This document shows, in pieces, positions 7,101-45,626 of a stretch of DNA of 64,000 bases. The stretch's first letter is position 1, and the number at the start of each line of letters is the position of its first letter. The stretch is from the NCBI GenBank assembly GCA_039621445.1, contig CP154954.1, positions 18,896,642 to 18,960,641 on the forward strand. Direction: 5' to 3'. Source of the DNA: Euglena gracilis (Eukaryota). The translations under genes were made by a program, and so were the position numbers. The notes under the pieces were generated by a model, which worked only from the letters and a program-made list of their open reading frames with translations, was not told the DNA's origin and did not search any database.

Positions 7101-10100
7101 CAATTCCAAAAATCTGCAATATGTTTGCCAACAATTCAAACGGCTGAAAATTTTGGTGGCAAGGAAAAAATTGTCAAAATGTGGATTTTTTTCGTTAGAA
7201 TTATTTCTCCGCAGAGTTCATTGAAACCTTCCTATGATGCTGTTGTGTGATATTGGTGATTACCAACACTCCTCAAACCTGATTCCTCCAGTGACCTCCA
7301 AACACCCCCCTGGGGCCTCTCAAGGATGTTTAAGTCAATTCGATCTTTTTGTTGTTGTTTTTGTCGTGTTTTTTTTTGAGGGTCGACCGTTTGTTCCCTG
7401 CACTTGACGGTTCGCCATGTCGCTGGCATCCCCACCCTCCCAGGACGTGGGACGCCATTCCAAGCCTGTGGGCTCGGTCTGCATCCCCATCGGAGCCATT
7501 CTTCAAGGCCACATTGCAGACACCTGGCATGCCTCCCCCCACCACTCTCTGACACTGTGTTGACCCTCCAGTGCATGACCATGGTGATGTGATGTGTGCA
7601 ATGGGTCTTTTTTTTGTCAATTTGGCAGCTCTCCATTCTTCCTGTTTCCCCAGATTTCACATTGCAAATACAGTTTGGTAAAAACTGAAATCAGCTCTGC
7701 GAATGACTGGCTCTGCCAATGACTTCCTGAATTTTGTGACTTTTGCTTCTGTTTCCAAAAAGTGCTTTTCACTCTGGCCTTGGTTTAAGACCATGACAAT
7801 TACTCAGTTGCGACTCTTGCAAATAATACCGACTTTTGTATGCAGTGAGTGAGGTTCGCTTATTTTTGTGTGCCACCTCACATCAGCTCCCTCCCTGCCG
7901 TCTCAGGCACCCCCTCGGCCGTAAGGGCCACCTCCGTATTTCTATTTGGTTTGTGGACGCCTCGCAGGAATCCCTGACCTGTGAAGTGCCATCCCCTTTC
8001 CAAGTGTGCGTGCATGTGCATATGTTTGTGCAAAATGTCAACCATTGTGGCGTTTTCGGTTTTGGATTGTTCCAGGAATTGTTTTTTACCCCCAGGGGAG
8101 GGGGGTGGGTGGGTGGGTCTGCCAGACCCCCTCCCCCGGGGGTGTCCCCAAGGGCCTTGTGGGTCCCCCACCGGAGACGGCGTTTTGGCAATTTTCGGCT
8201 TTTTTCAGTGCGAAGCGCCGCATTTTTTTGAACCCAAACTGACCCCCAAAAAGTGGGCCCCCTGGATCCCCCCGGGTTAGAGGGTACCCCTGGGTTGGAG
8301 GAAGGGGCCCCCGGGTCTTAAAAAAATTCCCTGTCCCCCCCCGGTCAAACATTTTTTCATGGTTGGCAGAAATTCAAAGTTATTTGGGTATCATGGGATT
8401 TTGGTTTTCTTCACTGCCATGTTATCATGAGCCATTTTAGATCACGTGTTCTGTTGCTGTGCAGTTCTGTGGTTTCAGTATGTTTGCAAGTGTGTGTGTA
8501 TGGTGTATGTGTGCAATTTAATTGGCATTTATTTTTAATGATCTCCAGCATCAACACGGAATCTGGTGTCTTTGTGTAAACAGGAGACCTCAGGAAACCT
8601 CGTCACCCTGTTCCAAGATGCCCATGTTCCTCTGACCACACGTGTACCTGACGTTCTAATTGCCTCTGGGACATCCAGGGTTGGGGGTTAAGATCAGGCG
8701 GATTTCGGTTGTCTCTTTCTTCCCTCCAGTGCCTTTTTCAGTGGGTTTCCAACCTGTGAGGACCATCCATTTTTTAAGTAGTCCGTCCCACTGACAGTAA
8801 TTTTTGGCCGGCAAAGGAATGGTTTTGTTTATATGCAGTTTTCTTATCTATCATTTTGATATTTTCTGACAATAATTTATGCAGTAACATCCTGCTCTTG
8901 CTTCTGCAGTCCCCCCCCCCAAAAACCTGACGGTGGGCAAGCTGAAAAAGATGGTTGCAGTAATCTGGCACCCCACCCAGTTGTTGTTACTTTTTTGGGG
9001 GGGGTGTCGTTTATCATTGTGATGTGCAACACAAATAATACATTTGCAAGGTGATTTGTGGTAAAATGGGTAAGGTCTTCCAACTGCAATGGATGATGAT
9101 AGTCAAGATGCCATCTGTCGCGCCTCTTCATTTAACCAGCCCTGCAGACGTACCACAAATACAACTGCTTGTGGGAAACTTTATATCGCACGCTGCAGGA
9201 GGTACAGTTCTTTGTGCCAACGTTGTCCCTATTAGAATGCCCCTTTCAGGAAATTTGTTTCAAACTATTGTGTAACAATGTGAGGAACTGTGTTTTTCAA
9301 CATCCTGCATTGCATTCTTCTGATTATTATTCAGAAATCCAAAAGTCCAAACAAATCCAAACAAAAAGCGCCGTCAATTATTTTAATGCTCTTTTTCTGT
9401 TTCCATCCAAAATTGTGGCAATTCAAAAGTCTGCACACAGGGTTGTGTATGCGTATGCACAGCTGGGCAGGGTCCCGGTCTCCAAGGGCTGCCCACCGCA
9501 ACAAACATGCCTGACATGCCCTCTCCTCTCTGTCCGCAGCGCTCCTCCCCCCTCATCTGCTTTGCAGGCCCAGCATTTTATTTATATCGCCGGCTGGTCT
9601 GTCTGGGCCAACGTCTTGCTTTTGCGAGAGCGTCCCCTTGGGCCGGAAGGTGGGCCACGTGAGGGTTGGAGTTGCATCAGTTCCATGCAGCGTTTCATGG
9701 ATGGTGTGACGGCGATTCGCTCCATTGTCAAACAACGCACAGAAACGTAATTTATCCTCATTCCACTCAGCCAATTTTCGTGCAAAATAGCCTGCCACCT
9801 GTGGCTGAACCTGTTACGCCAGTTTGCTGGAGTTGCTTACAGAAAGCCAATGAACGAACAAACGAACTTATGAATAAATGAATGAATGAACCGAGCCCTG
9901 CCAGTGTACATACACCCCCGTTCTTGACACGCTGGTCCATGACACAGCCCGTGTGTCAACCGCAGTTCTACTGTATCCAAAATGCCATTTTCTTTATGGT
10001 ACAGTGTAGCGTGTCCATGACCCCCCCCCCAATGTCAACCCTATTTCCCCCGTACTTTGGCATGTGAAGGACGGGGGGATGTCATCAAGCGTCGTTTCTC

Positions 10101-13100
10101 GCCAATCTCGAGCGCGGATTGCTTCGCTCGGTCCGTCAGTGCCGGTGTGGTGTCTTCTGCTTCGATGCCCCTGGGCCTCTCTGTCGTACTACGTGCCTTT
10201 CGGCACAGGGTTCATTTCCCTGGGGGAGTTGCTGAAGCAGAAGGCCGCCCAGGGCGTGACGAGCAGGGAGGGGCTGCCGGAGGCTGCTTGGGAATGTCAG
10301 AGCCCCCCGCCCCTTCTCACACTGTGCCCTGTATTAGCACCAATTGGTCGGAATAGCCTGTGAAAAGGGAGTTCGATCAAGGTTTGGCATTGCAAAAATT
10401 TACATTACAAGATTTTAATTATAAATTGAAATTATGGGTGCCCCCATGGTCACCCGAAGATGGGCACTCGTGACTGTTACACATTTTTCTTCATGTGGGG
10501 TCCCCCATCACCGTTAAACATTTGTTTGGTTCCCTGTGGCTGTTTTGTTTGTTCACTGTTTGGCGGCTGATGTTTGAGAGAAAGCTCTTCTGAGTCCAAC
10601 CGTCCCACCCCCTTCCCCCCCCCCTGGGGGGCGGTGCTGCTGCTCGTGTGGGACGAGCTGCTGTCCATCGACAACCGCCTCCTCAACACGCTGCTGGGGG
10701 TGACCCGCACCGGGCTGATGAAGACGCACGCCCCCGCAGCTGCTCACGTTGCGCTGGCGGAGGCTGCCTCACACTTGCTTGCCAGGAGGGGGCACTGAGC
10801 ATCTGCGTGGCAACGACCAGGAGACCAAGGCGTTTTTCCAAGGCTCCGACGGTGTGTCAAATGAATTGATCCTGAGCTATTTATAAATCACACGGTCGCA
10901 ATTGGTTCTGTAGACCCAAATGTGTTTCCAGCCGGCCTTTTCCCAGGTGTTTCTTGTACTGCAAATGCATCGCCCATGTCTGTGGAGGGGGTGTGATGCA
11001 GTTTCTGGGCATAGCAGCCTTCTTCGTCTTGGCAATCAGTTTTGGGCATTGCTCCTGCTTACTCGCGGTCCCACACACTGGGCTGCTCCCCCCCCCCCCC
11101 AGTGGTGTGCCAGCTCGTCATGCGGCGGGGCAATGGCATCAGTTCGCCGGGCAACGTCTCCGCGCTGACTGGGGTATGCCCAGGCCTTGTCAGGGGCGGT
11201 GCTGATGGGCGTTAGCACATTCAATGCAAGATCCACAAAAGAAATGACCAGAAAAAATGTCCATATTTTGGCAAACAACAGGGCAACTTCGGCTTTGGGG
11301 AAAAAAGGGATTCCTGGCATCCTTTTTCAACCTTTATTTTTTCGACCCATTCGAGCCCCACTTTGGCCCTTGGCCAGCCCCGAGGCCAGTCTGGGGATCG
11401 AACGGGGTCGAAAATTAAAAAAAAAGTTGAAAAGAGTGTCTTTTGATGCTTTTGGTGCGTGGGCGATGGTCCAAGGATGCCAGATATCAAGTTTTTTTCC
11501 ACTCAAAGTGCACCTGTTTTTGGTGGACAGATATTGCAGATTCCTTCCATTTTTGGTCGATTTCCGGTCTGGAACTGCCATGCAGGGTGGCGAGGCTGTT
11601 ATTTGGATTTATGGCAGGAAACCCGAGGGGAGGCTTCTATTTGGGGTATTTACAACAAAAAAGATGGATACTGAAAGTGGCGGATTTTTTAGTTGGTCCA
11701 ATATGAGATGAGGTTGGGAATTCTGGAAGAAAATTAGCTCACACCTGCAAGAAGAACGGTGCCAAGTGAGAACCTTTCAGCAACGAGCCCACTGCCTCGT
11801 GGCGGGGGGGGGGGGCTTTTGTGCGGACAGGGGGGTGGTTTTCGGGATTTGGGGGAGTCGCACCATTCGCATAAAATTCCACCTGGGGCTGTTGTGGGGT
11901 GCAAACCAAAAAAAATTGGAACAGAAATTTGAATTTTTCCAAAACATTTCAATTTGGTGAAGAGTGAGGATTTTGAGCCTGTCTTTTTTTGTTTTCTTTC
12001 CCCCAATCCCAGGGTCCTGATAAGCTGAACAGCGTGTTTTGGAGGTTGTTGGTTTTGTGTTCAGTGGCTTTTCAGTCGATAAATGGCAATCTTCGGGCCA
12101 ATCCAGTGCGACCCAAACTGACGCAAGCGCCGGCCGCGGGACAACTTGCAAGGATGGATATTGATATTGCGTTTAGGGGGGTCCCGATAAATCTGGATAG
12201 ATTAAACCCCCGATATCCTCGATAAAAATTGATAAAACCGATATGATCATTTTCCCCCCGACATCCTCATTTTTGTGATATGGAGAATCCCAAATCGCCC
12301 CAAAAACAACAAAAAAGTTCATTGCCCCCCCCCCCCCAATACAGCTGATATTTCATGGTATTTTTTCGGGACCCAATAAGTTCAAGATCGGCAATCAGGC
12401 CGATATGGGCCGATATCCAATATCCATCCCTGCAACCTGTCTTCACCGCAGGCGCTCAGCAAGGTGGCGACGGAGGCGGTCTTCACGCACCACCAGAAGA
12501 CCGTCGTGTGCGACGCCCCAGCCGCGGCCTACGGCCGCCGGCGGGTGGTGGCGTTCGTCGGGGGCCTGGACGTCACCAGCGGCCGCTTCGACACCCCGGA
12601 GCACCCACTGTTCGCCACGCTGGCATCCTGGCACTCCGTGGACTTCTACCAGGTTGCAAGCATCCTGGTAGCAGCAGCGGTTGGTGTGACCGGGGAAAAA
12701 TGCTTCTTTGCGCCACGACAACTGTGGGACATTTTTTTTTGTAACTGGCTGTGCCAAGTTGAACCTTTTGTTGCATCCCATGCAACGTTGAAGATGCGCG
12801 CCGTGACCACGACGACATTCCATTCATATTGTTTGCACTAAGCCGCAGCTAAAAAAGGTCTGTGTCACATTCACCGAGGCAAAAACAATACTTGCTTGCT
12901 TATTTACTGACCTGCACTGTGCCGGCACTATTTATTTTTTTGCAACACCTTTGCCACGGCGCAGTAGCGACAAATACTTGGGCGGCCCACGTGGCACTTA
13001 AGGATTTTGGCCAAACCAGGCGCACGTGTGCGCGAACTTGTGACACGTCCGTCTCAGTTGGTTTGCGGTGTTTGAAAACCCGGCCAGCGGCGCGGACGTG

Positions 13101-16100
13101 TTACCCAAGCAGGGCTGTAGTGCCTTGGGGTTCGAACCAGGCTTCTGCTTAAGGGTTCGCAGTGCCCGCCGGGGGGGGGGCTGGACTGAAGCTAGTCCAA
13201 ATTTGGCCAGTGGAAATCCCAGTGGGTCCGCTGGCAGGGCTGGCTAGAGGAATTTTTTTTCAGTGACCAGCACGAAGCACCAAAATTTTTTGGAACCCCA
13301 AAACTTGCCAAAAATGCTCATTTTTTTGCCTTTTTTTTTAGTTTTTTTTTTGGAACAGAACCACCAAAAAAACACGTTGGAAACCACATTTCCGTCTCAG
13401 CGCACAGCGTCGGAGGAGTTTTTTTTCCCCCCAGTTGGGGGACCCCCCAATCCCCTGCAGTGCCCGCAAAGGGGGGGATGTCCCCACGTGCGCAGGTGTG
13501 TGCGATTGTGCCCTGCAATGCATGTATGTCGTTTCGGGCGGTGGTTTCAAGCACCGCAAGTCCGTGGACCTCGAACCTCTCCACGGCTGTACGGGAATCC
13601 CCGCAACCCTGTGGGTGGTGGGTGGGGGGGTCCCCCCCATCCTGGTGGTGGGGGGGGGGTCCGACCCCCCGCCAGGCCTTCCCGTATTTTCGGGGGCCCC
13701 GATTTTTATGTCAACGTTTTCCTTCGGCGCCGAAGGTAATTTTCTTTGAGCGGGTGCCATGGTGGGTGGGGGGGGGGGTCGACCCACCCTCACCAGGCCT
13801 TCCGGCACAGGCCTGCCCTGCCCTGTCGGTCTCTCTTTGCCGCCTCCTTCGTGATGCCCTCACAGCCTCACAGGAGTTCAAATGTGTTTTCTTTTGGGCG
13901 CTGTCCCCCCCTGTCCCCGTGTGCAGGGGTATGGGGAGTACGAGGCGACGTATGGGCCCCGCCAGCCGTGGCACCCGCACCATTGCCGGCTGTGCAAGAG
14001 TGACTACCTGCCGAAGGGTGTCTCCCCATGCCCCGACCCCCCATGTCAATGTGCCTCGGCCCCCACGCCCCGCAAGTTTGGTGCCCCCCCATAGCGAGTC
14101 CGTGCGCCCCCCTGGTGCCTCCCCCCACCCTGTGGTGGGGTTTGGCCCCCGCACCGCCCCCCACCCCCTCCGGCCCTCTCACGCGGTCTTTCTTTTTGCC
14201 GTCCCCCCTGTCCCCTTTGGCAGTGGTAGCCTCTGACTGTGTTTTGGGCTGTCCCCCCCTGTCACCCCGCACCACGCCCGCACGGTGCCGCCCAGTGCTT
14301 ACCTGCCGAAGAGTGACCCCAACCATGTTTCCTCGTTGCCAAACGGCCAAAAATGCAGAAGCTGGCCCGAAGTGCTTTGAGTGGTTGAAGGGACCGACCC
14401 TCTGCCATTTGTTTCACACTTCAATTTTCTTTTTTTCAGAAATCGAAACGTCAAAATACAAGACTGTTTTTTTCCAGACATAGAAAGCGAAGGGTCTGCA
14501 ATGGCCTGGCCCTGACGTCCATGCTATGGTGGATGGCCCGGCAGCCCTGGACGTGCTGAGCAACTTCGAGCAGCGGTGGCGGAAGCAGGTTGGGGATGCC
14601 CATCCCGGTTGGGGTGGTGTGGGTTGCGCGTGCTTCGCATGGTTTAGCTTCCACCCGCTGTTGAGTACAAATCCCATATGTATGTAAAGGATTTGTCGGT
14701 TTACCTCCACATATACATGAATAAAAATATATGAATATAAATACATATAAAATGAAATATAATAAATAAATACAAAAAATATTATAGGATCATCTGTAAA
14801 AAGAAGCTCGGTATGTGTTGTTCCTTCTTTGCTGATGACCCTTGGCTGCGTTGCCCAAATGTTTATCTGTGACCCTCACCACGTTGCGTTTGCTGGAGCC
14901 AAGACCAGCCTCCACAAACATTAGCGACACTTGCAACCCTTTTCATTCATCCAAGCATTTGCCAACGGTGACCGATTTTCCCCCCTCGAAATCTCATGAC
15001 TTCTGTGTGCTTAAAAAATGCAGTTTTAACCAGCAAACTCATCGCAAGGCTGTACCCCCAAACGGCTCTCAACGTGCTGTAGTGGTGTCCCCTAGGAGGT
15101 CATGCCCAGCCATTTACATAATCTGCTGTAAGTCCCATGGAATCGAACCAGTCCCAGAACAAAAAGCTGTTGCGGTTCATCTGGGTTTTGTGTGGATCTA
15201 ATTTCGAAATGAATTTGACAACAAATTTCACATCCAGATTTGATGTCCTGGGAAAAGTTTTTCTGCTGCAAATAAGGCCATATAATTTCCACAAAGAACA
15301 CTTTTTCAGATGTGTTTGGGTGCAACACTTACCCTATCTGCAGGTTCGAAGGAAGGCGGGTTGCCTGCTGGATCTGAGTTCAAGGCTTGGCGAAGAGATG
15401 GTTGTTTAGAACAATCCCGAATGAAACTTCAATTATTTATTGCTGAACAGCAAACATCCAAAAAAACAGCTGGTTCATATTTCCCCGCAAAGAATATTTT
15501 TTTTTGGTCTGCAATGCTTCTGGATGAATTGCATTGCACTACTCGGGCTACTCGGGGGTGGGTTATTCTACCAAACACAAACAAACTGCAAGTGTCAACT
15601 TCAGCCCATGTGGCCAAGCTGGGGCATTTGATTGTGCCCCAGGATTCGGTACAAGGAGGGTGTCACGGCTTAGGGTGGGGGTCGCTGAGCTCTTATCTCT
15701 TTTTGAGTAAGGGCGAAGCTTTCCTCCGGGGGAAAAGGGAGGAGGGTTGAACCCCCTCCCAACCCTGGGTAGGTAATGAAAACCAGTGTATTATCACCAT
15801 GACCCTGGACTCGTTCCCGGTATTTTCCCCCCACCCGTGAGCGACTGGATCTTGGCTTCCCAAATGACCTCCGTTGAACCCCCAACTCCCCGCCAGGTCC
15901 AAGTCATTCAGCCAAGGGGAGATAAGCCCAAGGTGAGATTTTCCGTCAGAAAAATCGATTTTCCAAAAATATCTCGAGAAAGCGTACATTACAGTGTGCC
16001 AAAAAAGTTTTTATACCCTAAAGCCAAAAAAGTTTTTATATCCCTCAGACGAAAAAATAAAAAATGATTTTTTCTTTGGTTAAACATATGCCTTGTGCCA

Positions 16101-19100
16101 TGGGTTGGGGGGCCACAATGGGTGATGGGCAGAGCAAGGTGGCGCCTGCACCATATGCTGCACGCTCCTAAAGGCTGTTCAGTAGCGTGTGTGACCTACT
16201 TTGGCCGCCAGCACGGCATGCATGTGGGCAGGCAGGCTTTTGTACAGTTTCAAAACGGAGTCCTGGGGTATCCCCAGGAATGCTTGCCGTATGGCCTCCC
16301 AAAAGGAGGTTTCGTTGCTGTACGCCCGCTGACCCAGCCTGCTAACCACTTGCGGCCGAAGGTTTTCAGTCAGTCTTCTGGTGCACGTGGCGGTTGTTGG
16401 TGGTGGGCAGCCCGGGGAAGTGGGGGGGGGGTGGCTGAGCGTATGAGCCAGACCTGACCGGAGCTACAGCAACAAAACTGCTGGAAATACGTCCCTTGAG
16501 CAGTTGTATTCACACGCGCGCGCACACACACACCCACACCCACCCACACCCACACCCACACCCACACCCACACCCACACCCACACCCACACCCACACCCA
16601 CACCCACACCCACACCCACACCCACACCCACACCCACACCCACACCCACACCCACACCCACACCCACACCCACACCCACAAACATGTGTGAAGCCGATTT
16701 CAGGAAAAGAATGCCCGTGCAGGTCGGAGCCCCTCTCCACGACCACATTTTCCGGGCCAAATTGGCCAAATCCTGCCTTTCACCAAATATCCCCAATGAC
16801 CAAACTGGCCAATCTCCCCCCACCCTGCCCTGGGCAGGGTTCAGCCAGAAGACTGCACCTTTTCAAGGAATTTTGAGCGACTCCCTCCATTTCATCCATC
16901 CTCGGTGTGCCCATCCTGTTCGCCGGTAGATTTCAAATTCTGCTCTTCGGGGCTAGCAAATACCAATTCCAACAAGATGGGGCACCGGTGCACAAAAGCA
17001 GGTCGACACAGGACTGGCTGAACGACAAGGGTGCCAGGTTGTTCAACGACGGGGCCTGGCCACCAACCTCACCTGACCTGAATGTTATTGAATGCAGTCT
17101 TCTGGCTGAACCCTGCCCAGGGCAGGGTGGGGGGAGATTGGCCAGTTTGGTCATTGGGGATATTTGGTGAAAGGCAGGATTTGGCCAATTTGGCCCGGAA
17201 AATGTGGTCGTGGAGAGGGGCTCCGACCTGCATGGGCATTCTTTTCCTGAAATCGGCTTCACACATGTTTGTGGGTGTGGGTGTGGGTGTGGGTGTGGGT
17301 GTGGGTGTGGGTGTGGGTGTGGGTGTGGGTGTGGGTGTGGGTGTGGGTGTGGGTGTGGGTGTGGGTGTGGGTGTGGGTGTGGGTGTGGGTGTGGGTGTGG
17401 GTGTGGGTGTGGGTGTGGGTGTGGGTGTGGGTGTGGGTGTGGGTGTGGGTGTGGGTGTGGGTGTGTGTGCGCGCGCGTGTGAATACAACTGCTCAAGGGA
17501 CGTATTTCCAGCAGTTTTGTTGCTGTAGCTCCGGTCAGGTCTGGCTCATACGCTCAGCCACCCCCCCCCCACTTCCCCGGGCTGCCCACCACCAACAACC
17601 GCCACGTGCACCAGAAGACTGACTGAAAACCTTCGGCCGCAAGTGGTTAGCAGGCTGGGTCAGCGGGCGTACAGCAACGAAACCTCCTTTTGGGAGGCCA
17701 TACGGCAAGCATTCCTGGGGATACCCCAGGACTCCGTTTTGAAACTGTACAAAAGCCTGCCTGCCCACATGCATGCCGTGCTGGCGGCCAAAGGAGGTCA
17801 CACACGCTACTGAACAGCCTTTAGGAGCGTGCAGCATATGTTGCAGGCGCCACCTTGCTCTGCCCATCACCCATTGTGGCCCCCCAACCCATGGCACAAG
17901 GCATATGTTTAACCAAAGAAAAAATCATTTTTATTTTTTCGTCTGAGGGGTATAAAAACTTTTTTGGCTTTAGGGTATAAAAACTTTTTTGGCACACTGT
18001 ATTTCTGAAAGTGTCTGCCAGACTAAGTGTCCCTCTGGAGACCCTCTATCGCCCCCTTTGTACGCTGTTTTGGCCGCCAATACGCAAGGCCTGTTGTGTG
18101 GGACAGGGGTACATGCACCATAACCACACCCCATGGGCTGGAAGAGGCTTTGGAGCTGGGGGTTGGGTACCACCCACAACAAAATTTGGGGGTGTTAAAA
18201 TAATTCATGCCCCTATTATACAAATATATGTATTATTTCAAATATTATTACAAAATATATGCGCACACATGTATATGTATAATATATATATATATGATAT
18301 ACACATAATTAATGCCCCTACTGCCCATCAAGAACTTGATTTTTGACCCCCAAAAGCAGCCCCCCCCCCAAAAACCTCGCAGGTGGAGAGGGCAGTGGCA
18401 GTGCAGGGAAGGTGACCATTTCGGGCAATTTTGGGCTTTTTCGGCCATTTTTTTTTTGCCCAAAATGGTCACCTTCCCCAAGTGCCCTCTCCGCCTGCAT
18501 TGACAGGGGTTACCATCATGCGTTGTCCAAAGGTGGGTCCAAGGCTACCCACCCCAGTATGCAGCAGAGCTGGCTGGGGCACTGATGCGTGGGGCAGGGG
18601 CGTGCCAGTGTGCATACACCATCACCATACCCGATAGAGGCTTTGAGGCTGGGGGTTGCGCACCACCCACAAGATTTGGGAGTGTACAAATAATTAATGT
18701 CCCCATGGCATCTCGAAAATGCAACAAAAATCAAACTAAATGTCCGGCAACAAAAAAGCTGAAGCCCTTTGAATGTCCCTCCAACATTTTTGGCCTTTAT
18801 GCCCAGTTTTGGCATTTGCGGGGTTTTGGGTTGGTTTTTGGGTTCAGAAAATGGATGCTTTCAAAATGTCTCGAAATGAAGCAAAATCAAAGGAAGTGTC
18901 CGTTGGCATAAAACAATGGCCTTTGGAACGGCCAATCTGATGGCTTTTTGATTTCCTTGGTACTCTGTGGCCAGCCCGAGATATTGCCATTTTTAATGCA
19001 CACTTGGCCTTTTCTTGAACGACATTTTCAAAATATACCCAAAATGGTGGACAATCAAAGGACATCCCTGAGGATCTAAAATCCAGCCCTTGGGACCCTC

Positions 19101-22100: not shown

Positions 22101-25100
22101 CAGACCACCCACCCGCCACCTCCCCAACGCCGAGACTGGTGACCCGGGTTTACCGAAGCCGCGGGACCGTGAGGCCACATTGGAGTTTTTCAAGTCATGG
22201 AGTTGTGCCTGCACCATGCATCCCCCACACAAAGGTGGGAAGAGGGCAGGAGGCAAAAGCAGCACTGGGGTGCAAGGGTGCAGACCCACACATTGACCAC
22301 ACAACGTGAGTGTATGTCCCTACAGAGTTGTTCACCCGACCAGGGGGAGCACCACAAGAGCACTGGTGCAAGGGTCCCTGGCCATTCACCACACAGCAAA
22401 CTGGGCCAGAGGCGAAGTTAGCGCCGGCCATAAACAGACAACTAAGTGCAACTAAGGGGGGTTTGACTGGGGGGGGGGGAGGTAGGCTGCAAGTTTATGC
22501 CATTTGTTCCATCAAAATATATTTCATTCCGTGTATCTTTATCTGCGCATCACCACATTCCTTTTTTCGGAAAATATTTCTGTTATTCTTGCCCATCATC
22601 CAACCATATTCTGGCATTGGGGTTTTCAAATATTTGACCAGTCCGCCATGCTGAATGCATTTCGTGCTGTGCCAGGGAATGCCTGCAATCGCTTCATCAA
22701 CGTTTTCACACCCTTTTTACTTCCATCGATGACAATGTCCCCCCGTCCACAGCATCCCGGCAGAGCTGGTGGCAAAGATCGTTTCGAAGATTCACGCAGG
22801 GCAACGCTTTGCCGTGTACGTTGTCCTTCCGATGCACCCGGAAGGTTCGGCTCCCCAAGTGTTTCTAGACTGCTGAAGAGGAGGGGGGTTACAGTTGAAT
22901 GGCTATTCATTGCCATCTGTGGCCCAAGTGTTCTTGAGGGATCTCGAATCTCACGGATCAGCTTGTTTCAACACAAGTTCCAATACAAGTAACCCAAGTG
23001 AGGGATAGCAAAAGCAACGAACACCTTGCCAGGCGGGAGACTCGGTGCATGAGCAGCCCCTTTCCTGCTGGGAGGCAATATTCAGGGATCCAGGGAATCA
23101 GAGGTGATAGTGGTGTTTGTCGGATTGTTTTTTTTGGCTTTCGGTTTTGGAGAATGTTGCCATTTTTTCGCCTGTGTGCGTCATGTGTGTGTTTTCAGGG
23201 ACTTTTTGTGCAAGGTTTTTTGCGGAGTTTTGTTGTGAAGCAGGGCGTAGCTTAAGAAAATTTGACCCCCCAGGGGTGGGGTCCAGCTGGAAAATTTGGG
23301 CTGGCTGGATAAAGGCTGCTGGCTGACCCCCCTCCACCCATAGGGGTCCCGGGCCGGAGCTTGGCCCGACCCGGGTCGAACTGGGTTACCAAAAAAAATC
23401 CAAATTGCAAAAAAATGTCCAAAAAACTGTCAATTATGGGAAAATCAAAATTTTGACCTCAAATTTGCCCTGGCCAGCCCTTTTCCGACACATTTTTTGG
23501 CCCATTTTTTGCACCCCTGAAAGCAAAAATCCATTACTGTCCAGCCGCCCAAAGGGAGGCTGGAAATAAATAGAACTCGTTAGGGGGGGGTCCCGAGCTG
23601 GAAAAAGGTTGCTGGCTGGAAAAAGGTTGCTGGCTGGCTGGACCCCCAGGGTCGTTAAAAAGCACCCTGTTGTGAAGTGAATTTGACTCCGCCAATCTTT
23701 GCATTTGGGCAGCCCTTTGATTCACGCAGCAGGCACTGCCCCCAATCTAAAAATTTATAAGAATATGATAATATGGAATATATATAATTTATATATTACA
23801 AAATATATATTATATGCAGTATATATATATCACATATAATATATATTATATATTTAGCACAATATATATATATATATATATTATAATAAAACAAAGTATA
23901 TTATAATAAAACAATGTATATATTTAACACAATTTTTTTCCTTTATGAATATAGATATAACGTATATATGTATACATAAATGTATACATATATATTATGT
24001 CGATGAATTGCCCCCCCCCCCCCCCCCGTCCTTGGCCTGATCTCGTCGCACCCCCCCCAGGCATCCCCGAGGAGGCTGCAGTGCAGGCCATCCTGCAGTG
24101 GCAGTACAAGACCGTGTCGTTCATGTACCGCCGCATCGCTGCGGCCCTGCAACAGTGTGGCCCCCCGGTGTGTCCGCCACCCCCTCCGATGCTGCATTCA
24201 TCGGGTGCTGTTTGAATCCCCTCGAACACAACCCGTGTCCTGATTGCCCAAGCAAAGAAACAAGGAGAACCTCCCCAAAGTAAAGTAAAGGAGAAGTAAA
24301 CAAGTGAAGGAGAACCTGACCCCCAAGGTGAACTTTCCAACCTGGAGCTTTTTTTTGAAAATCGCTAAACTGTCCAATTTCAGGCACAAAAAATTGAAAT
24401 TATGATTTCTTTTATGATGAAGAATGATGTTGAATCTCAATGGGTACCAATTTATGTGTGGCGAGAAGCAACAAAAGCGCTTTTTTTGCGGTGGGGTTGG
24501 TCAACAAAGACACAACGAGGTCACTCCAAAAAAAGACTGGATGTTTCCAAAAATAGTTTCAAAAATAAGATGTGGGGCTTATTATTACATTTTAATTCAT
24601 TTTATTAATCATCTATTGTTTGTTTCTCTTTTTTTTTTGTATTGCAGTGGTTGTTTTGTTGCTTTTTTCTTCTTGTTTTTATGTTTTTTCTTCTTTTTGT
24701 AGGTTTTTTTTTCAGCAGCACCCAGCTGGTTTTCACCAATCACCAAAGCAGCCCTGCAATTCTGCAGCCGTGACAGATGCCTCTATTAATTTTGATTTCA
24801 AGTTGTTTCCTTTCCTTGTTGTTTCTGCATCGAAGGATGACCAGGGTTTGATATAAGGACAGCGTCCCCCTTAACCTGCCAAAGGGTTGCAAAAAAAGTG
24901 ACCAAAGTCATTTTGGGGGGCTCATTCGGTGGGGACAATTTTTTTGGATAGTGCTTGGAGCCAGGCTGAAAATCGGTCGCTTTGGCCATGCCTCAGTTCA
25001 GTCAGGGGCATTTCAAATAGTAAGAGCGAACTCACACTTTCATGCTTGCTCTTATATTTCGCTCTTACTAAACTGGCCTTGGTTTTGCACAGCGCGCTGC

Positions 25101-28100
25101 AGCAGAGCTGGTTGGGGCACTCTGTGTGGCTGTGTATGCACACACACGACCACCAAAGCCCATGGGCTGGCGGAGGTTTTGGGGCTTGGGTTTGGTGCCG
25201 CCCACAAAATTTCGGGGTGTACAGTTCATCGATGCTTTTACCGCAGGCATTGTTTTGAAATTAGACCTGCAGTTTTGGGGCATTGTTTGACATTACACCC
25301 GCACTTTCGGGGACAATCTTCTTGACTCACGTTTCGGGTTTCAGGACGCACGACCCTAGGGCAGAACGGGAATCGGCCAAACAGCCAGGGTGGGGGGGTG
25401 GGGGGGTCGACCCCCCCCCACCTCCTCCTGTTTCGGGGAGCACCAATTTTCGACCCCCAAAATTTTTTCCCGGCGCATTCGGCGCCGGGTGGATTTGTTA
25501 AAAAAAAATCCGTGAAAATGCTGTGGTGGTGTGGGGGGGTCGACCCCCCCACCAGGCCTTCCCGTTCTGCCCTAGGCGACCCCAAACACACACGCTGCAC
25601 GCTGGGCCCCCACAGGGAGCGCTGCCCACGGACTACCTCAGCTTCTTCTTCCTCGGGCAGCGTGAGCCGGGGCCGGGGCCGGGCCCGGCGGCGGCGAACC
25701 TCCGCGAGTGGCGGCAGGCGGAGCAGCTGTTCTCCCGCCGGCAGATGATCTACGTCCACAGGTGAGTCCGGATTTTGTCGGCAGGTGGGTGTGTAGCGCG
25801 GCAAGTTGATCCCCCCCCCCACACATGACTCCCCCAAAGCATTGTAGAAAATGCCTGAGGTGCCAAAAGGTGAAAGGGTGCAACCCCCTCAAATACCCGT
25901 CGGCCACCTACAGGGAGGGGGAAATTTGGAGATGTGTAAAATACAGCTGGAACAGGGTGCCAGAACGATGCCCGACTGCCATTTTTTCCCCCCATAGTTG
26001 TGGTCCAGCAAAAATTCCCCATTTTCTGATTTTTTTTGCAATTTTCTGTGACGGTGATGAAATGGTGCCAATCTGTGGGTGATGCCTAATTTGAGACCTG
26101 AAAATTGAGATTTTTCGGTTGGTTTCTCCTCCGATTTTGATCATAATATCCTAATTTGACAGACATGACATCTTGTTTCTGTCCCCACAAATCTCAAATC
26201 TCCAAATTCCTGTGCATTTGGGAATCCCACCAAATTTTTTTGAGGCTGCCAAATGTTTTTTTTTACTGTTTTAGCTGAGACCACCAATTTTTTCCTCAGG
26301 TCCAATTATTAGCCCAGCTCGAATGTCTTGGTTTCTTCTTCGTGTAATGCAGGTTGGGTGTTATTTGTGGGGTATCTCGATGAAGCAGCAGTTTTTCCGA
26401 AACGACAATTAATCCTCCATGTGGGTGTCGGATGCGCATTTGTATCGTGTGTTCCAGGCCAGGCTTCTTTTTTAAGGAAGTGCAGCCCCCCCCCCCAGGG
26501 TGTGTGCTGTGGGCAGGCAGGGGGTAGGGATTTTCGACCCCCTGAGGGGGGGGGTAGGGTGCTGGGATGGGTAGTGCTAGAGCACACCCCCGGTGCCTTC
26601 AGTGCCGGGGTCCCAAAAATTGCCCTTTTCAAGCGATAATTTGTTTTGTCTGCAGGTACCGGGGTCCAAAACCGACCCCCCTGGGGGGGTGTGCCTGCTA
26701 TGGGCAGGCACACGTGCTATGCACAGGGCACCCCCCTCCCCCCGGGGTTGGTAAAAAGAAACCTGTTCTAGGCACATCCGTGGTACATGTCATCCATGCT
26801 TTTCGGAGGTGCCTTTTGGCTCGAAACCCCCGCAGCTGTCCCTCCGATGTCCTGCAGCAAATTAATGGTTGTAGATGATGAGTACGTCCTGCTGGGCAGC
26901 GCCAACATCAACGAACGGTCAATGGCAGGTTGCGTGTCGTTGCGATACGGCATATACCCTCCGGTCCCTTTGTCTTCGTCTATTCTATCTATATCTATGT
27001 CTATATCTATGTCTATATCTATATCTATATCTATATCTATATCTATATCTATATCTATATCTATATCTATATCTATATCTATATCTATATGTGTATATAT
27101 ATATGTATATATGTATATATATACATATATATACATATATGTATATATACATATATATACATATATATATATATATCTTTTGTATTCTTGAAATGACAAG
27201 AAAAGGTGGAAATGACAAGCAAATGCTGAGCATCGGAGTGCGCATCCCCCAAGGGCCGGAACTTGGTCCCTCAAAAGTACGCACCTGCACCTGCATTGAC
27301 CCTCAGGCTTCTTATGAGGAAGGTCGGTACCCCAGCATGCAATTTTTTACTGACCCGGGGGGGGGGGGAGGGGGGGCACTCCACTCTTCGAAAAACCAGT
27401 CAGCCATTTTTTTTTTGGGAAACCAGTCAGTCCCCCCCCTGGGGGGATTGGCCACTCAGGAAAACCGGCCACTTTCCAGTCACTTTAGGCCAAAAAATTT
27501 TTCCCGGCGCCTTTGGTGCCGGGGTCAACCAATCCACTTTTGCCAACCCCTGGCTGACCCCCCCGGGGGAGGGGGGGGAGGGGGTCCAGGCCAAAACCAG
27601 TCAGTCACCCCCTGGGGGGGTCGGCCAGTGACTAAGTGATTGTATGCCCCCCAGGGCGGCGGGCTCGGCTCTTGGACAGGGGATTTTGCTTTGGGCGGCC
27701 CAAATATGGCACCCGGGGGGTTCGGTTTTGAGTCCCGGTATGGCCCGACCCAGACATATTTTCTTGAAAATGGTCATTTCGGGTCCCCGGCACCAAAGAT
27801 ACCGAGGAATGTGCTTCAGCCGTCCTCAAAACCCGTCCCCCGTCCCGGCTGCCACCGGCCTCTTTCCCTGCGCTGCCAAGGTTATTGGTCTTATCCCTCT
27901 GCCAATCCAAAAGTTGCCAGGGAGATACCTTATTGACCCAGGGGGCGGTTGGCAGGGGAAGCAAGTGGAAAAAATTTCCACTAAAAAAAAGTTGAAAAAA
28001 TTTCCCACCGGCGGGCACAAAGGACAAGAAGAATTTTGACCCCCCAAAAACTTAAAAAAATGCCTGTTTTGGTATTTTTCTTGGACATTTTCTGGAATGA

Positions 28101-31100
28101 AAATTCCTTGGGCACTGCACGCCAAAATGAGGGTTCTAACGTGTTTTGGGCTGAAACTCAGCCCAAAACACGTTAGAACCCTCATTTCGGCGTGCAGCAG
28201 TGCCCAAGGAATTTTCTTTCCAGTTAGGTGGACCCTGCCTCCCCCACCCGGGATGGGCGGTGTAGCTGGTAGCTTTATTCTGGTGGTTTGCATCTGCCCA
28301 ACCCCCCCAAATAGTATTGCACTGCAGCATTATTGGACGGCCACCTCAGGCGGCGGGGGGTGCAGCACTATTTGGACCGTGCCGTATTATTGGACTGGGT
28401 GCCACTTCGTCCCGCCTATTACCACAGGCACCCTTTTTGCCTACTCGATGTCCTTCTCTGAGGCCAGCGAGGTGCACTCCGGTTGTCTATTCGTTTCTGA
28501 CGACTTCCGAGTTTTTCGGGTGGGAATTTGCCCCCTTTCCCCTCTCTGCATGTTACAAAAGGTGCCTGCAGTTAGCTGCACGAGCTTCTACGCATTTCAC
28601 ATTGCTATGTTTTTTGGGGGGTGCAGCACTCTTGGACGCTCACTTCATCCGGCGGGAAGTGCAGCACTATTTGAACCCACAGCTCTATTGGCCCCGTAGC
28701 ACTATTAGGGAGGGGGGTTTAGCCAATGGAGCCTGCTCGAGTCTCAAACAAAAGCCTGCTTGCTGCCAGCAAGTGACCCGACAAGTTGGACCAGCCTGTC
28801 CTCAGGCATTTCTAAGGCGTTCCTGAGCGCCCCCCCCCCCTCTCCCCCAGGAGACCGGGACACAGAGATCTGCCTGGGGATGCACCAGCCCGACTTCGCT
28901 CGGCAGGGGGCAGGCTTGACCGGGAAGGGTTGATCCTCATTCCGATCTTATTCACCTGTTGCTTGAATTTGGGGAAGCCAGAGTGGAGAACTCCGGGGGA
29001 CAGGGGGACACTGCAAGAAGGCATCATATCTTCATCATCTTTTCTTTTTTCAAAAAAATTGAAAATTTTTGGGTCTGAGCTAAGAATACTCGGGTGTGAT
29101 TTCTTTTTGTGGACCAGATGCCAGTTCCCAAACTCCAACCCCTCGCCCCAAGTGGAGGGTGGAGGGGAGTTGGTTTGTCTGGGCGGCCTTGCCGAAAGGC
29201 TGCTTAAAAATTTGTCACGAAGGTCACCCAGAAATGTCTCTTTGTTTTGAAGAGGAGGAAGATTCTGGCACGTTTTTTTTTTGGAGGGAAAATGGAGGCT
29301 TGGAACGGACCCCAGACTGCGGACCCCCACCGCTCACCGGCACCTCCCAGGTCTCACACCATTCACAACCCAAACCCGAACCCCAACCTTAACCCTGACC
29401 CAAACCCCAACGACCCTAACGCTCGCCTAACGCTCGACCAAACCTGAAGCCTATCTGCAGCCCTCGCCTCTCCCTGCCATATGTGTGAGTGTGGGTTGAG
29501 CCCAGTAGGAAAATCCCACACACAATGGGAGGATTTCGCTCTCTTGATACTCACTCTTCTGTTCAAGTCTGGTTGAGGGCTACCCTCCCTGGCGGCCAGG
29601 TTGCTGGCTTCCGCCTGTCCCTGTGGGCGGAGCACACTGGTGCATATGAAAACGTCTACCGGGCAGGACGCTACGCCGCATAGGGCCAGGTGGGTGCATG
29701 TATCTCTTTTTTGTGTGTGGTGTGTTTGTGTATGCGTGTGTATGCGTGTGTATGTGGCATGTATGCGCGCGTGTTTGGTGGCTGGGTGTATGTGGTTCGT
29801 GTGTGCGGGCGGGCGGGCGGGCGGGCGGTTGGGCTTGTGGGTGTGGTGTGGGTGTGTGTATATGTGGTGTGCGCGCGTTTGGTGTGTGTGTGTGTGTGTG
29901 CGCGCCAGGCATTTGCTTAAGGGATTGCAGTACCCCCCCGGGGGGGGGCTGGACTGCAGCTAGTCCAAATTTGGCTAGTGGGGTTTCTAGCAGACCCCCC
30001 CCCGGGGCGGTCTGCTAGCAGGGCTAGCTAGTGGAAAAAATTTTTCCAGTGACCGGCGCGAAGCGCCGAAAATTTTTTTGGGGACCCCCAAAAATGGCCA
30101 AAAATGCCTGTTTTTGGCCATTTTTGGGAATTTTTGGAACAAAATCAGCCAAAGATCTGTTAAAAACCTCATTTTTCCTCCGGCGCGCAGCGCCGGAGGA
30201 AAATTTTTTTTCCAGTCCGGGGGACCCCCGGACCCCCCCCCCCCCGGGGGGGGTCTAGCTAGTCCACTTTTTCCAGTGTCTAGCCGATTGGCTAGCCAGT
30301 ACCCCCCCCCCCCGGGGGTCCTTAAGCAAATGCCTGGTGCGCGCGCGCGCGTGTGTGTGTGCGGGCGGGCGGGCGGGTGAGTGTATGTTTTCCCCCCTCC
30401 AACTTTGTCGGCGCTGCCCTGTCAGCATTTTCCAAGCTCAGTGGAGTGCATCCGCCGTGTGAATCAGCTGGCAGGTGTGTGGCTCGCTCCCCCCAGCATC
30501 AGGGCTCTCAGTCTCATGTGTTTAGAATCCTTTGAATGTGTGTGTTCATTTGACTTCATTTGTATTTCACTCAAAGCGTTTGCATGAATTATTTTTTCTT
30601 TGCTTATCTTCTTCAGCCTCAGTCACCTCCCAAAGTGGTATAATGACTCCTTTCATTTTCCGTTCATTTTCGGCTGAACAATCCTGGCGTGCACCCAACG
30701 GGGATGGGGATGTCAGGGAGCCCTGGGGGACCCTGTCCCTTGGGGGGGGGTCCGGCCAGCCAGCACCTTTTTTCCAGCCAGCACCTACCAGCTGGGGAGC
30801 GGACCCCCCCCCCCCGGGTCTGCTGAAATAAGGTTCGTGCCAGCCCGTCTAAGCCGGGCTGGACCGAAAAAATGAAATGGCCAAAAAGTGGCATTTTGGG
30901 GTCGTTTTGGGGGTTTCATATCCAAATTTTGGCTGAAAAATGCCGACCCAGCTGGATTCGGGCTTTTTTGGGCATTTTTGGGAACCTGCCGGGTCCAGCT
31001 CCCAGCCAGCTGGACCTCCCCCCCCCCCCCCAGACCCGGGTCCAGCCAGCACCTTTTTCCAGCCGGCCCACAGGACCCCCTGGGGTGCTTAAGAAAACCC

Positions 31101-33002: not shown

Positions 33003-33527
33003 TCAGGGGGGGGGAAATTGATATCCGCAATTTTTCCGCAATTTCCGCAATTTTCCGCAATTTCCGCAATTTTCCGCAATTTTCCGCAATTTTTCCGCAA
33101 TTTCCGCAATTTTTCCGCAATTTTTTCCCATTTTTTTTCCGCAGAATTTTTTTCCCACCACCGAAGATGGAAGATGCAATGAGTTCAAGCCATTCTTCAA
33201 ATGGATCAACAGGTGTGCTATTGTGTTTTGTTGTTTTTTTCCCCCCAGTTTACCAATTTTTCTCACAGGTGCACCACTGGTCACAGGATTGGGTGCGTCC
33301 CACCTGTGCAAAAAACATCAAGCGTGTTGATTTGTGCTCGCCTGCATCGACGTGGGTGTTGCGGTGTTCTGAACCTCACAATTGAAAAATTTCTAAGTCC
33401 CCTCAGACAGAAATGTGTATACCCGATATCAATTTTTCCGCAATTTTTCCGCAATTTCCGCAATTTTTCCGCAATTTTTCCGCAATTTTTCCGAAGGCCT
33501 CCGATATCAATTATCCCCCCCCCCCTG
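33003..33527. mobile_element. MITE inserted in (TA)n, with internal (TTTTCCGCAA)n tandem blocks
   Basis: CAGGGGGGGGGAAATTGATATC...GATATCAATTATCCCCCCCCCCTG ends and two subterminal tandem arrays. Confidence 0.7.
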
Positions 33528-45119: not shown

Positions 45120-45626
45120 AGGCGCTGGAGGAGCTCGACTACTCTGTCGTCTCGGTGGACGCCGAACCGCGGTGGACGACGGACAAGACGTTGGACGTAC
45201 GGCGCTGGCGGTACTGGGAGGAGTACTGACCCGGCAGCTTTGACGTGGTCGCTGTCTCGCCGCCGTGTACCGAGTACTCCAGCACGACGACGACCAGGGT
45301 GCAGCGGTATCGGAAGGCTGACTTCACGTTCCGCAAGACAAGGGAGATCATCGCCTACCTGCGGCCGTCCCTGCGGTGGGTGGAGAGTCCGCGCTACAGG
45401 AAACTCCGCCACCGCAAGATCGTCGAGAACATGCAGTACGTCGACGTGGACTACTGCGTGTTCGAGGGCGTGGGGCTACCGCAAACGCACCTGTTTCTGG
45501 ATGGTGGACTCCACGTCCCACATGTAGGACATAATGTGTGACGTGCAGTGCGACAACACCGTGAAGCAGCAAGATGGACGGCGTCATCACTGGCGGCATC
45601 TGGGAGGTACAACTCAGCAGCGCTGC
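45120..45626 (+). repeat. Inverted duplicate of MTase segment 47341-47838
   Basis: About 500 bp of near-identical reverse complement, sharing the same TGA stop. Lacks motif I. Confidence 0.92.

Follow-up and report, generated by a model that had tools for sequence, protein, structure and literature searches.

Where do the nonconventional introns of a Euglena gracilis phospholipase D (PLD) gene come from, and could the transposable elements residing in the same gene be their source? We addressed this question in a 64,000-nucleotide stretch of contig CP154954.1 (hereafter the window). A preliminary description had read the intron geometry (3 nt + CAG...CTG + 5 nt) as that of a hAT-type MITE plus one 8-bp target-site duplication (TSD). 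Its observations were upheld for the intron rule and the MITEs, but not for the counts of introns and of 6-nt spacers. Its interpretation is supported by the arithmetic, by flank identity above the null and by the fit of the MITEs to the splicing code; no intron here is homologous to a MITE family, and the label "hAT-type" and the claim that every exonic insertion makes an intron are unsupported or overstated. The intron type is known; the argument about its origin is new and plausible.

Nonconventional Introns of the PLD Gene

A nuclear PLD gene of Euglena occupies the region. In our gene model it has 28 introns, of which 9, i.e., those with borders other than GT/GC-AG, are ordinary euglenid nonconventional introns; ten had been counted before. 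The gene starts at a probable spliced-leader acceptor (2687) with the ATG at 2734, and its 3′ end was set at the first in-frame stop. A PLDc Pfam match on exon 12452–12652 had an E-value of 0.0016, under the curated cut-off. RNA joints were taken from contigs of X1, X2, and X8 and from raw reads of X21, aligned to positions 2100–16500. Fifteen joints were listed for this range, of which 11 allow a GT-AG or GC-AG reading and four are nonconventional. Together with one loose-end join, these joints prove five of the nine nonconventional introns: they are spliced out of the mature mRNA, and their borders are not GT/GC-AG, as is characteristic of euglenid nonconventional introns. The other four (20650–20898, 24150–25609, 28908–29576, and 29661–30426) were placed by reading frame and rule only. 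The gene, its nonconventional introns, and a further intron in a transposase fragment are as follows:

About 2687–32607, + strand: PLD gene with a C2 domain and two HKD motifs (tblastn with PLD homologues, RNA joints, open frame after splicing)
8673–9149, + strand: nonconventional intron; N3 ATC, CAG..CTG, N5 CAGAC, then G (RNA joint 8669>9147, 3 ambiguous letters)
10261–10632, + strand: nonconventional intron; N3 GAG, CAG..CTG, N6, then G; spacer sum 9 (RNA joint 10259>10632)
10731–10815, + strand: nonconventional intron, 85 nt (RNA joint 10727>10813)
13975–14513, + strand: nonconventional intron; CA..TG only (+4,+5 / −7,−6), N5 GCCCT, then G (RNA joint 13974>14514, zero ambiguity)
15378–19495, + strand: nonconventional intron, 4.1 kb; N3 GTT, CAA..CTG, N5 GGGGA, then G (RNA loose ends; helix 10/12)
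17092–17626, + strand: nonconventional intron in a Tc1/mariner-type transposase fragment (frame across the junction; fits the rule)
20650–20898, + strand: inferred nonconventional intron, 249 nt; N3 AGC, CAT..CTG, N5 CCTGG, then T (frame, homology, helix 10/12)
24150–25609, + strand: inferred nonconventional intron; N3 CAA, CAG..CTG, N5 GGCCC, then C (candidate junction placed by the rule)
28908–29576, + strand: inferred nonconventional intron; N3 GGG, CAG..CTG, N5 GTTGA, then G; flanks 5/8 identical (frame, helix)
29661–30426, + strand: inferred nonconventional intron; N3 GGG, CAG..CTG, N5 TCAGC, then A (frame, PLD C-terminal homology)

The join across intron 15378–19495 follows from loose ends of X1, X2, X8, and X21 at 15378, which resume with the letters of 19497; a one-base slide gives the borders listed. 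Palindromic Tc1/mariner fragments lie inside this intron. The transposase fragment around 17092–17626 matched Pfam DDE_3 (E-value 1e-4, under the curated cut-off). Its intron carries an 11-bp helix, CAGTCTTCTGG, and an inverted copy is found at 16366–16857; the spliced form, from a paralogous copy, is represented by an X8 contig with a loose end at 16368 (3-nt ambiguity). Regarding the junctions placed by rule, 20650–20898, which interrupts an IYIENQ|YF motif, is itself in frame and open, and 24150–25609 has an alternative in-frame reading, 24155–25614, with GT..CA borders.

Fit to the Published Splicing Code

We scored ten introns, the nine of the PLD gene and the transposase intron, four of whose junctions are inferred. 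All ten fit a terminal helix set 3 nt in from the 5′ junction and 5 nt, once 6 nt, in from the 3′ junction: within the sliding that RNA joints allow, the spacers are 3/5 in nine introns and 3/6 in one (10261–10632), where two 6-nt spacers had been reported earlier. The ends had been called mostly CAG/CTG, which is exact for six of the ten and holds as CA..TG for nine, but 10731–10815 fits the 3/5 register only via a weak 4-bp CCGC/GTGG helix. As for the RNA junctions themselves, all five tested PLD introns are compatible with a 3/5 or 3/6 register, but one of them has a spacer sum of 9 and another depends on the weak helix. The downstream exon begins with a purine at eight of ten junctions, the exceptions being T at 20650–20898 and C at 24150–25609, both inferred junctions.

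This geometry is no discovery, as it has been published and tested by knock-in. CAG at positions +4 to +6 and CTG at −8 to −6 were described for euglenid nonconventional introns (PMC4770533), and Nomura et al. 2025 (PMC12501133) give a knock-in-defined code, N3-CDG...CH′G-N5-6|R, which also demands pairing behind CAG/CTG and a purine as first exon base. According to the same paper, fully synthetic 50-bp introns were spliced after knock-in although reduced to N3, CAG, a stretch that pairs, CTG, N5, and a purine; the code accounts for 61.2% of nonconventional introns and is lacking in 38.8%, and 69.1% are slidable. Our PLD introns do not differ in kind from those of earlier reports (PMC12501133; Milanowski et al. 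2014 and 2016, PMC3935182 and PMC4770533) and represent further examples, sharing non-GT-AG borders, in most cases a CAG/CTG terminal helix, spacers of 3 nt and 5–6 nt, mostly a purine next to the junction, GT-AG introns in the same gene, and short junction repeats.

CAGG-Ended MITEs in the Same Gene

The three MITEs with CAGG...CCTG ends named in the preliminary description are real, as are their 8-bp TSDs, for which we recovered 8/8, 7/8, and 8/8 identity. A possible fourth element was added:

23241–23669, unstranded: MITE, 429 bp, CAGGG..CCCTG ends, TSD TTGTGAAG (8/8), in GT-AG intron 22845–24060
26460–26765, unstranded: MITE, 306 bp, CAGGC..CCTG ends, TSD TTCCAGGC / TTCTAGGC (7/8), in GT-AG intron 25762–26857
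29906–30336, unstranded: MITE, 431 bp, 17-bp perfect terminal inverted repeat, TSD GTGCGCGC (8/8), inside a GT/GC microsatellite
33004–33527, unstranded: possible fourth MITE, CAGGGGG.. ends, flanks 7/8 identical and lying in a TA repeat

Because the flanks of the fourth element lie in a TA repeat, their match is weak evidence. The MITE at 29906–30336 is nested in inferred intron 29661–30426 and has a 73% identical, 3′-truncated relative at 13138–13455; a MITE-like element (25362–25569) is likewise nested in inferred intron 24150–25609. Perfect repeats in the flanks of CAG..CTG inverted-repeat pairs were found for three pairs at k = 8 and for none at k = 6, 7, or 9–12. One of these three, 45280–47687, was rejected as a long-inverted-repeat artefact. 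A stricter scan found none in three shuffled sequences and one reversed sequence.

All three MITEs comply with the published splicing code on the gene strand. The element at 23241 offers N3 AAG, CAG..CTG, N5 TTGTG, and then A, and that at 26460 offers GGC, CAG..CTG, TTCTA, and then G, so that every element of the code is present in both; at 29906, C follows N5 and G follows N6, and the code applies with a 6-nt spacer. The MITE ends share the pattern CAGG-N7/8-TTAAG next to the TSDs. The 5′ end of intron 8673–9149, CAGGG-N7-TTAAG, resembles them; such a TTAAG match occurs at one of 20 intron ends, with a chance of ~0.04.

Proposed Origin of the Introns by Insertion, and Flank Identity

The published excision rule and the presence, in the same gene, of MITEs with CAGG...CCTG ends and 8-base duplications make a transposon origin of the introns plausible. 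A CAGG-ended element inserted with its 8-bp TSD into a transcribed exon would already have all parts of a nonconventional intron: the left TSD would supply the 5′ spacer with its final 3 nt, the inverted repeats of the element would form the helix, and the right TSD would supply the 3′ spacer with its initial 5 nt. Under the published rule, in which C-A-G pairs with C-T-G, the cuts lie 3 nt before the helix and 5 nt, in some cases 6 nt, behind it. As the spacers would be drawn from the TSD copies and the helix from the inverted repeats, excision would remove the element plus 8 nt and leave one TSD copy, i.e., the uninterrupted coding sequence. The arithmetic of the earlier proposal, 3 + 5 = 8, is thus correct for cuts at these positions. 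Its extension to every exonic insertion as an instant intron goes too far, since the purine and the pairing behind CAG/CTG are part of the published code as well. Most nonconventional introns would be aged exonic insertions of such elements, with later drift of spacers and inverted repeats confined to what the splicing machinery tolerates. We consider the best explanation to be that nonconventional introns are old MITE insertions excised together with one TSD copy, and hold this to be probable with moderate confidence; an origin as TSD footprint is a plausible idea that lends itself to testing, and this analysis does not prove it.

If TSD copies once flanked the introns, residual identity would be expected in this register. 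Flank identity at the ten introns was 4, 3, 5, 2, 3, 2, 3, 5, 2, and 5 of 8, close to the 2–5/8 scored earlier, with 5/8 again for 28908–29576 and for 17092–17626 (ATTGAATG / ACTGAAAA). The mean of 3.4/8 exceeded the 2.14 of mismatched pairs in this window (permutation p about 0.01, n = 10), and identity was highest at offset 0 among the 11 offsets from −5 to +5. Residual identity is modest (2–5/8, n = 10, four junctions inferred). Counting against a TSD origin are the spacer sum of 9 in intron 10261–10632 and, in 10731–10815, the inner CAG/CTG helix, whose spacers sum to 16. The search for MITE relatives among the introns, which the earlier interpretation had called for, gave a negative result within this window: blastn assigned 0 of 9 nonconventional introns to any MITE family beyond the nested copies. 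Local-alignment z-scores of 4–5 were traced to homopolymer runs.

Published junction repeats fit the TSD-footprint idea, as does the 69.1% share of slidable nonconventional introns (PMC12501133). PMC4770533 describes a nonconventional intron confined to one E. agilis strain, with eight-nucleotide direct repeats at its junctions, as a recent gain, and PMC3935182 mentions one intron with "as many as nine positions", which implies an 8-nt repeat. A MITE-like origin of euglenid nonconventional introns has been proposed in general terms only, and the main texts searched nowhere link the sum 3 + 5 to the length of the TSDs made by CAGG-ended MITEs of the same gene.

The sum of 8 could also be a coincidence. 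The spacers of 3 and 5 nt would then reflect nothing but the geometry of the splicing machinery, the MITEs would be unrelated bystanders with CAG/CTG ends by chance, and the introns could stem, for instance, from filler DNA inserted when staggered double-strand breaks were repaired or from reverse splicing of intron circles. The lack of MITE family members among the introns here, the weak flank identity, and the share of nonconventional introns without the code (PMC12501133) are in line with this, and Milanowski et al. 2016 (PMC4770533), who proposed the filler-DNA route, interpreted the eight-nt repeats as traces of double-strand break repair. Such repair, however, leaves both the 8-nt repeat length and the CAG..CTG inverted ends unexplained, and reverse splicing would carry the old spacers along, hence no repeat with the new flanks. 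As MITEs of the same gene have the same ends and 8-bp TSDs, and offset 0 ranks first, we regard coincidence as unlikely.

The order of events might instead be reversed: the code would be the older of the two, and only transposons that matched it in their ends and TSD length, by chance or by evolving to do so, could spread through genes without harm. The match would then reflect selected mimicry rather than the way in which the intron class originated. We judge this quite improbable, even though the Discussion of Nomura et al. (PMC12501133) suggests that the machinery may mitigate harmful insertions and the MITEs observed here all lie in introns, where such selection on them does not act. Under co-adaptation, too, recent nonconventional introns are expected to be such elements, and the contrast to descent of the introns from MITE insertions is confined to the order of events.

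Huff et al. 2016 are said to have described introner elements as DNA-transposon-derived spliceosomal introns of Micromonas and Aureococcus. Like an intron derived from a MITE insertion, introners of Micromonas, Aureococcus, and Amoebophrya arise from a non-autonomous inverted-repeat element that enters an exon and leaves the coding sequence intact; the exon/intron boundaries fall within a direct repeat, and pairing of the inverted repeats can place the exon ends side by side. They differ in that their splice sites are spliceosomal or of uncertain nature and their repeats short (3–5 nt in the non-canonical introners of Amoebophrya; PMC7789003), whereas here the cuts are measured from the helix (3 / 5 nt), the repeat would be 8 nt, and according to a review, involvement of the spliceosome is doubted. 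Introners form many near-identical copies, some of them complete introns, while no nonconventional intron matched a MITE family within the window.

Superfamily of the MITEs

The earlier assignment as hAT-type may be right, judging by TSD length and CAG ends, but it is unproven, because no transposase for these elements is present and E. gracilis is also host to Merlin elements, whose TSDs there measure 8 bp. No hAT transposase or autonomous element was found in the 64-kb window, and a Pfam scan of six translated stretches yielded no hAT domain but only the Tc1/mariner DDE_3 fragment and PLDc. Terminal inverted repeats of hAT elements start with YARNG. The ends at 23241 (CAGGG) agree with this pattern, and those at 26460 and 29906 (CAGGC or CAGGT) agree at 4/5 positions; the TSDs have the 8-bp length of hAT MITEs, with perfect repeats confined to k = 8.

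The MITEs may alternatively be genuine source elements from a different superfamily that also makes 8-bp TSDs, Merlin being the most plausible and P-like or Mutator-like elements further candidates, which we consider doubtful but with a real chance. Beside the missing hAT transposase, literature searches on Euglena and hAT returned no report connecting the two, and two Merlin families with 8-bp TSDs were reported from E. gracilis (PMC8101967). The same paper gives Merlin TSDs of 8–9 bp, which fits, and inverted repeats starting with 5′-GG, whereas the window elements start with CAGG, their CA/TG being inverted and not direct.

In common with hAT elements such as Hermes, hobo, and Ac, the window MITEs have 8-bp TSDs and short inverted repeats beginning with CAG, and small non-autonomous derivatives are known from these elements as well; they differ in that the hAT transposase has no counterpart here. 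Published logos of nonconventional introns show Y|R at both junctions and a downstream exon starting with R-A-C, with A in 43/55. In TSD coordinates this A is position 7, the same as the A of the Hermes/hAT target preference nTnnnnAn, which comes with 8-bp TSDs (PMC2803484). Among the four TSDs in the window, T occupies position 2 in three and A position 7 in one, a poor fit at the latter, and only one matches nTnnnnAn in full.

The PLD gene and its introns

The window is euglenid nuclear DNA. In a protein search, the HKD exon matched best to an E. gracilis transcript product (70% identity), and the exons agreed at every position with matching RNA contigs, which came from many runs under a single species label. 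Using tblastn with phospholipase D (PLD) homologues and RNA joints, we identified one PLD gene on the + strand, whose frame is open from MASGF... across both HKD motifs after removal of the modelled introns. In three raw RNA reads, the loose letters ATTTTTTTTC stand immediately 5' of 2687, directly behind AG. These letters resemble the spliced leader, and position 2687 is probably where the leader is trans-spliced to the PLD mRNA.

RNA evidence, comprising reads and contigs of four runs, covered positions 2100-16500 and revealed 23 joints. Among the 15 joints listed, 11 are compatible with GT-AG or GC-AG borders and four are not (8669>9147, 10259>10632, 10727>10813, and 13974>14514). In a fifth case, the exon end at 15378 continues into letters present at 19497. 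The readings of these five introns were chosen within the sliding permitted by the RNA. Four further nonconventional introns downstream of 16500 are predicted from frame, homology, and the splicing rule, and the remaining PLD introns are GT-AG.

The PLD gene and its nonconventional introns (all on the + strand)
2687 to ~32607, +: PLD gene; probable spliced-leader acceptor 2687, ATG 2734
8673-9149, +: intron, N3, CAG..CTG, N5, then G; RNA joint
10261-10632, +: intron, N3, CAG..CTG, N6, then G; RNA joint
10731-10815, +: intron, 3/5 register via a 4-bp CCGC/GTGG helix alone, spacers of the inner CAG/CTG helix sum to 16; RNA joint
13975-14513, +: intron, unambiguous junction, only CA..TG; RNA joint
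15378-19495, +: intron, N3, CAA..CTG, N5, then G; RNA exon end and letters at 19497
20650-20898, +: predicted intron; frame, homology, rule
24150-25609, +: predicted intron, in-frame alternative 24155-25614; frame, homology, rule
28908-29576, +: predicted intron; frame, homology, rule
29661-30426, +: predicted intron; frame, homology, rule

The preliminary description had listed 10 nonconventional PLD introns. This observation largely holds, but the count differs: 9 of the 28 introns in our model are non-GT-AG. Likewise, one 6-nt 3' spacer was found (10261-10632) where two had been claimed.

The predicted intron 20650-20898 has 249 nt, is in frame, and lacks a stop; its retention would add 83 residues within the conserved PLD motif IYIENQ|YF. 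The junctions of the GT-AG intron 14589-15343 are spanned by a direct repeat of 7 nt, GCAGGTT (14584/15340). We rejected this repeat as a target-site duplication (TSD), since the consensus exon-AG|GT and AG|G accounts for it.

Intron geometry and the published splicing rule

The intron geometry is an already published rule. Milanowski et al. (2014, 2016; PMC3935182, PMC4770533) described CAG/CTG at +4 to +6 and -8 to -6, with Y|R at both junctions, and Nomura et al. (2025; PMC12501133) used knock-ins to set the code 5'-N3CDG-/-CH'GN5-6|R, i.e., a 3-nt 5' spacer, a helix, and a 3' spacer of 5-6 nt. According to the latter study, a one-base change of the 5' spacer abolishes splicing, the 3' spacer tolerates one additional base, and fully synthetic 50-bp introns with these features alone are spliced. 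The reporter experiment proposed in the preliminary description has therefore in essence been performed, though without a MITE (a small non-autonomous transposon). Its overall observation was mostly right but is no discovery, as the rule was in print, and the objects in the window are ordinary examples of known things.

The nonconventional intron noted in a transposase was recovered at 17092-17626, within a Tc1/mariner fragment, and obeys the rule. In a contig from RNA-seq run X8 (loose end 16368), a paralogous copy appears in spliced form, with a 3-nt ambiguity. The surrounding sequence forms a palindrome (15990-18001), in which 15990-16857 is an inverted copy of 17093-18001 with 94-95% identity. 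Each arm is a fragment of a Tc1/mariner-type transposase (Pfam DDE_3, under the curated cut-off) and holds the nonconventional intron, 535 nt long and with a (CACCCA)n repeat, indicating that nonconventional introns also occur within a family of transposon genes.

MITEs with 8-bp target-site duplications

Three MITEs had been described in the gene, and their flanks were reproduced: 23241-23669 has a perfect 8-bp TSD, TTGTGAAG (8/8), 29906-30336 has the TSD GTGCGCGC (8/8), and the flank repeat of 26460-26765 is 7/8. All MITEs sit within PLD introns, and by their shared CAGG-N7/8-TTAAG ends they look like one group. The element 29906-30336 has a 17-bp perfect inverted repeat, and its surroundings are GT/GC microsatellite. 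Among the window's CAG..CTG inverted-repeat pairs, perfect flank repeats were found at k = 8 (three pairs), whereas k = 6, 7, and 9-12 gave none; under stricter settings, no pairs were found in three shuffled sequences and a reversed one. One of the three pairs, 45280-47687, is an artefact, being part of a long inverted repeat with a self-reverse-complementary 8-mer. The candidate 25362-25569 was also rejected: its flanks agree at 7/8 but are palindromic, which makes the element ends ambiguous. Inverted-repeat scans with any terminus were swamped by TA and G/C microsatellites, and their masked version missed two of the three MITEs. When metagenome contigs were searched for exact copies of the 17-nt MITE end, 46 loci with a single match each were obtained; these are chance matches, since the opposite end was present within 3 mismatches in 0 of 46.

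A further MITE copy (13163-13643) is nested in the GT-AG intron 12653-13926. RNA-contig depth over this copy was 936 in run X1 and 613 in run X2, and many loose ends run into other copies; its family is abundant in transcripts.

The MITEs had been assigned to the hAT type. The length of the TSDs and the CAG ends agree with this, but no corresponding transposase was found in the window (Pfam scan of six translated stretches), and the assignment is unproven. Merlin elements with 8-bp TSDs have also been reported from E. gracilis; their ends are said to start with GG (PMC8101967), whereas the MITE ends in the window start with CAGG.

A proposed origin of the intron spacers from one target-site duplication

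The preliminary description further proposed that the 3-nt and 5-nt spacers add up to one 8-bp TSD. The arithmetic is correct: cuts by the rule would leave a single TSD copy at the MITEs. On the gene's strand, MITE 23241 reads AAG (N3), CAG..CTG, TTGTG (N5), then A, and MITE 26460 reads GGC, CAG..CTG, TTCTA, then G, both with every element of the published code; MITE 29906 conforms to the code with a 6-nt spacer. We then compared the 8 nt before and after the helix in ten introns (nine from PLD and 17092-17626), four of them with predicted junctions. Identities were 4, 3, 5, 2, 3, 2, 3, 5, 2, and 5, giving a mean of 3.4 versus 2.14 in mismatched pairs (p = 0.01 by permutation, in a small sample of n = 10), and offset 0 was the best among -5 to +5.

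Published observations point in the same direction. Direct repeats of eight nucleotides flank an intron that is confined to a single E. agilis strain and were attributed by the authors to break repair (PMC4770533), one nonconventional intron has nine possible positions (PMC3935182), and 69.1% of nonconventional introns were reported as slidable (PMC12501133). All three fit a TSD origin well; the authors read them otherwise. Furthermore, the downstream exon start tends to R-A-C (PMC4770533). In TSD coordinates, its A falls on position 7, and the Hermes target, nTnnnnAn, has an A there as well (PMC2803484).

Two RNA-proven introns argue against a TSD origin: in 10261-10632 the two spacers add up to 9, and 10731-10815 fits weakly. 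A blastn search of nine intron and five MITE sequences against the window revealed no MITE-family homology of introns beyond nested copies. The TTAAG motif occurs at only 1 of 20 ends, the 5' end of 8673-9149 (chance ~0.04). Local alignment of six introns with four MITEs gave two z-scores of 4-5, which we put down to runs of poly-G/C, given that mononucleotide shuffling was used for the null. Taken together, we somewhat favour the view that CAG-ended elements with 8-bp TSDs are the ancestors of most nonconventional introns. The argument is neat, testable, and plausible, and several independent hints speak for it; a single 64-kb window is no proof.

The argument is apparently unpublished. Among the main texts searched on Euglena introns and transposons, we found no paper equating the spacers with TSD length, and the search likewise returned none linking Euglena, hAT, and intron TSDs, or Euglena MITEs and hAT. 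A 2024 review refers to the ends as TIRs and describes the repeats as TSD-like, and its text contains neither "8 bp" nor "hAT" (PMC11282704).

Where the nonconventional introns of euglenids come from, and why they have such odd spacers, are questions dating from the 1990s, and the 2025 knock-in study still terms the origin unclear (PMC12501133). If the spacers were halves of an 8-bp TSD, the intron class would be explained as fossil insertions of one transposon kind. The splicing reaction would then be a host (or parasite) device rendering exonic insertions harmless at once, and the 71.8% share of nonconventional introns in E. agilis would be a record of transposon bursts.

A possible role of intron circles

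Excised introns are reported to leave as full-length circles (PMC11282704). The circle junction would read ...CTG, 5-nt spacer, 3-nt spacer, CAG..., and the two spacers would form one whole 8-nt TSD in native order. Such an RNA circle would correspond to a circularised transposon whose inverted repeats are separated by 8 nt. In the case of Hermes, circles that contain intercalary DNA can re-integrate, and the resulting TSDs have the normal 8 bp (PMC2803484). Reverse transcription of the RNA circle, if it occurs, could allow expressed introns to seed new insertions. We consider it very improbable that nonconventional splicing is the exact RNA-level reversal of one transposon superfamily's insertion, with the excised circle feeding back into transposition.

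Other features of the window

Long open frames at 39220-41108 (-) look reverse-transcriptase-like but had no Pfam match at E 0.01. A long inverted repeat, 45230-45541 (+) / 47426-47737 (-), lies in a stretch of 0.61-0.63 G+C. The same ~100-residue peptide, which gave no match in a Pfam scan, is encoded on both strands and contains an SPPCTEYS motif that we take to be reminiscent of cytosine methyltransferases.
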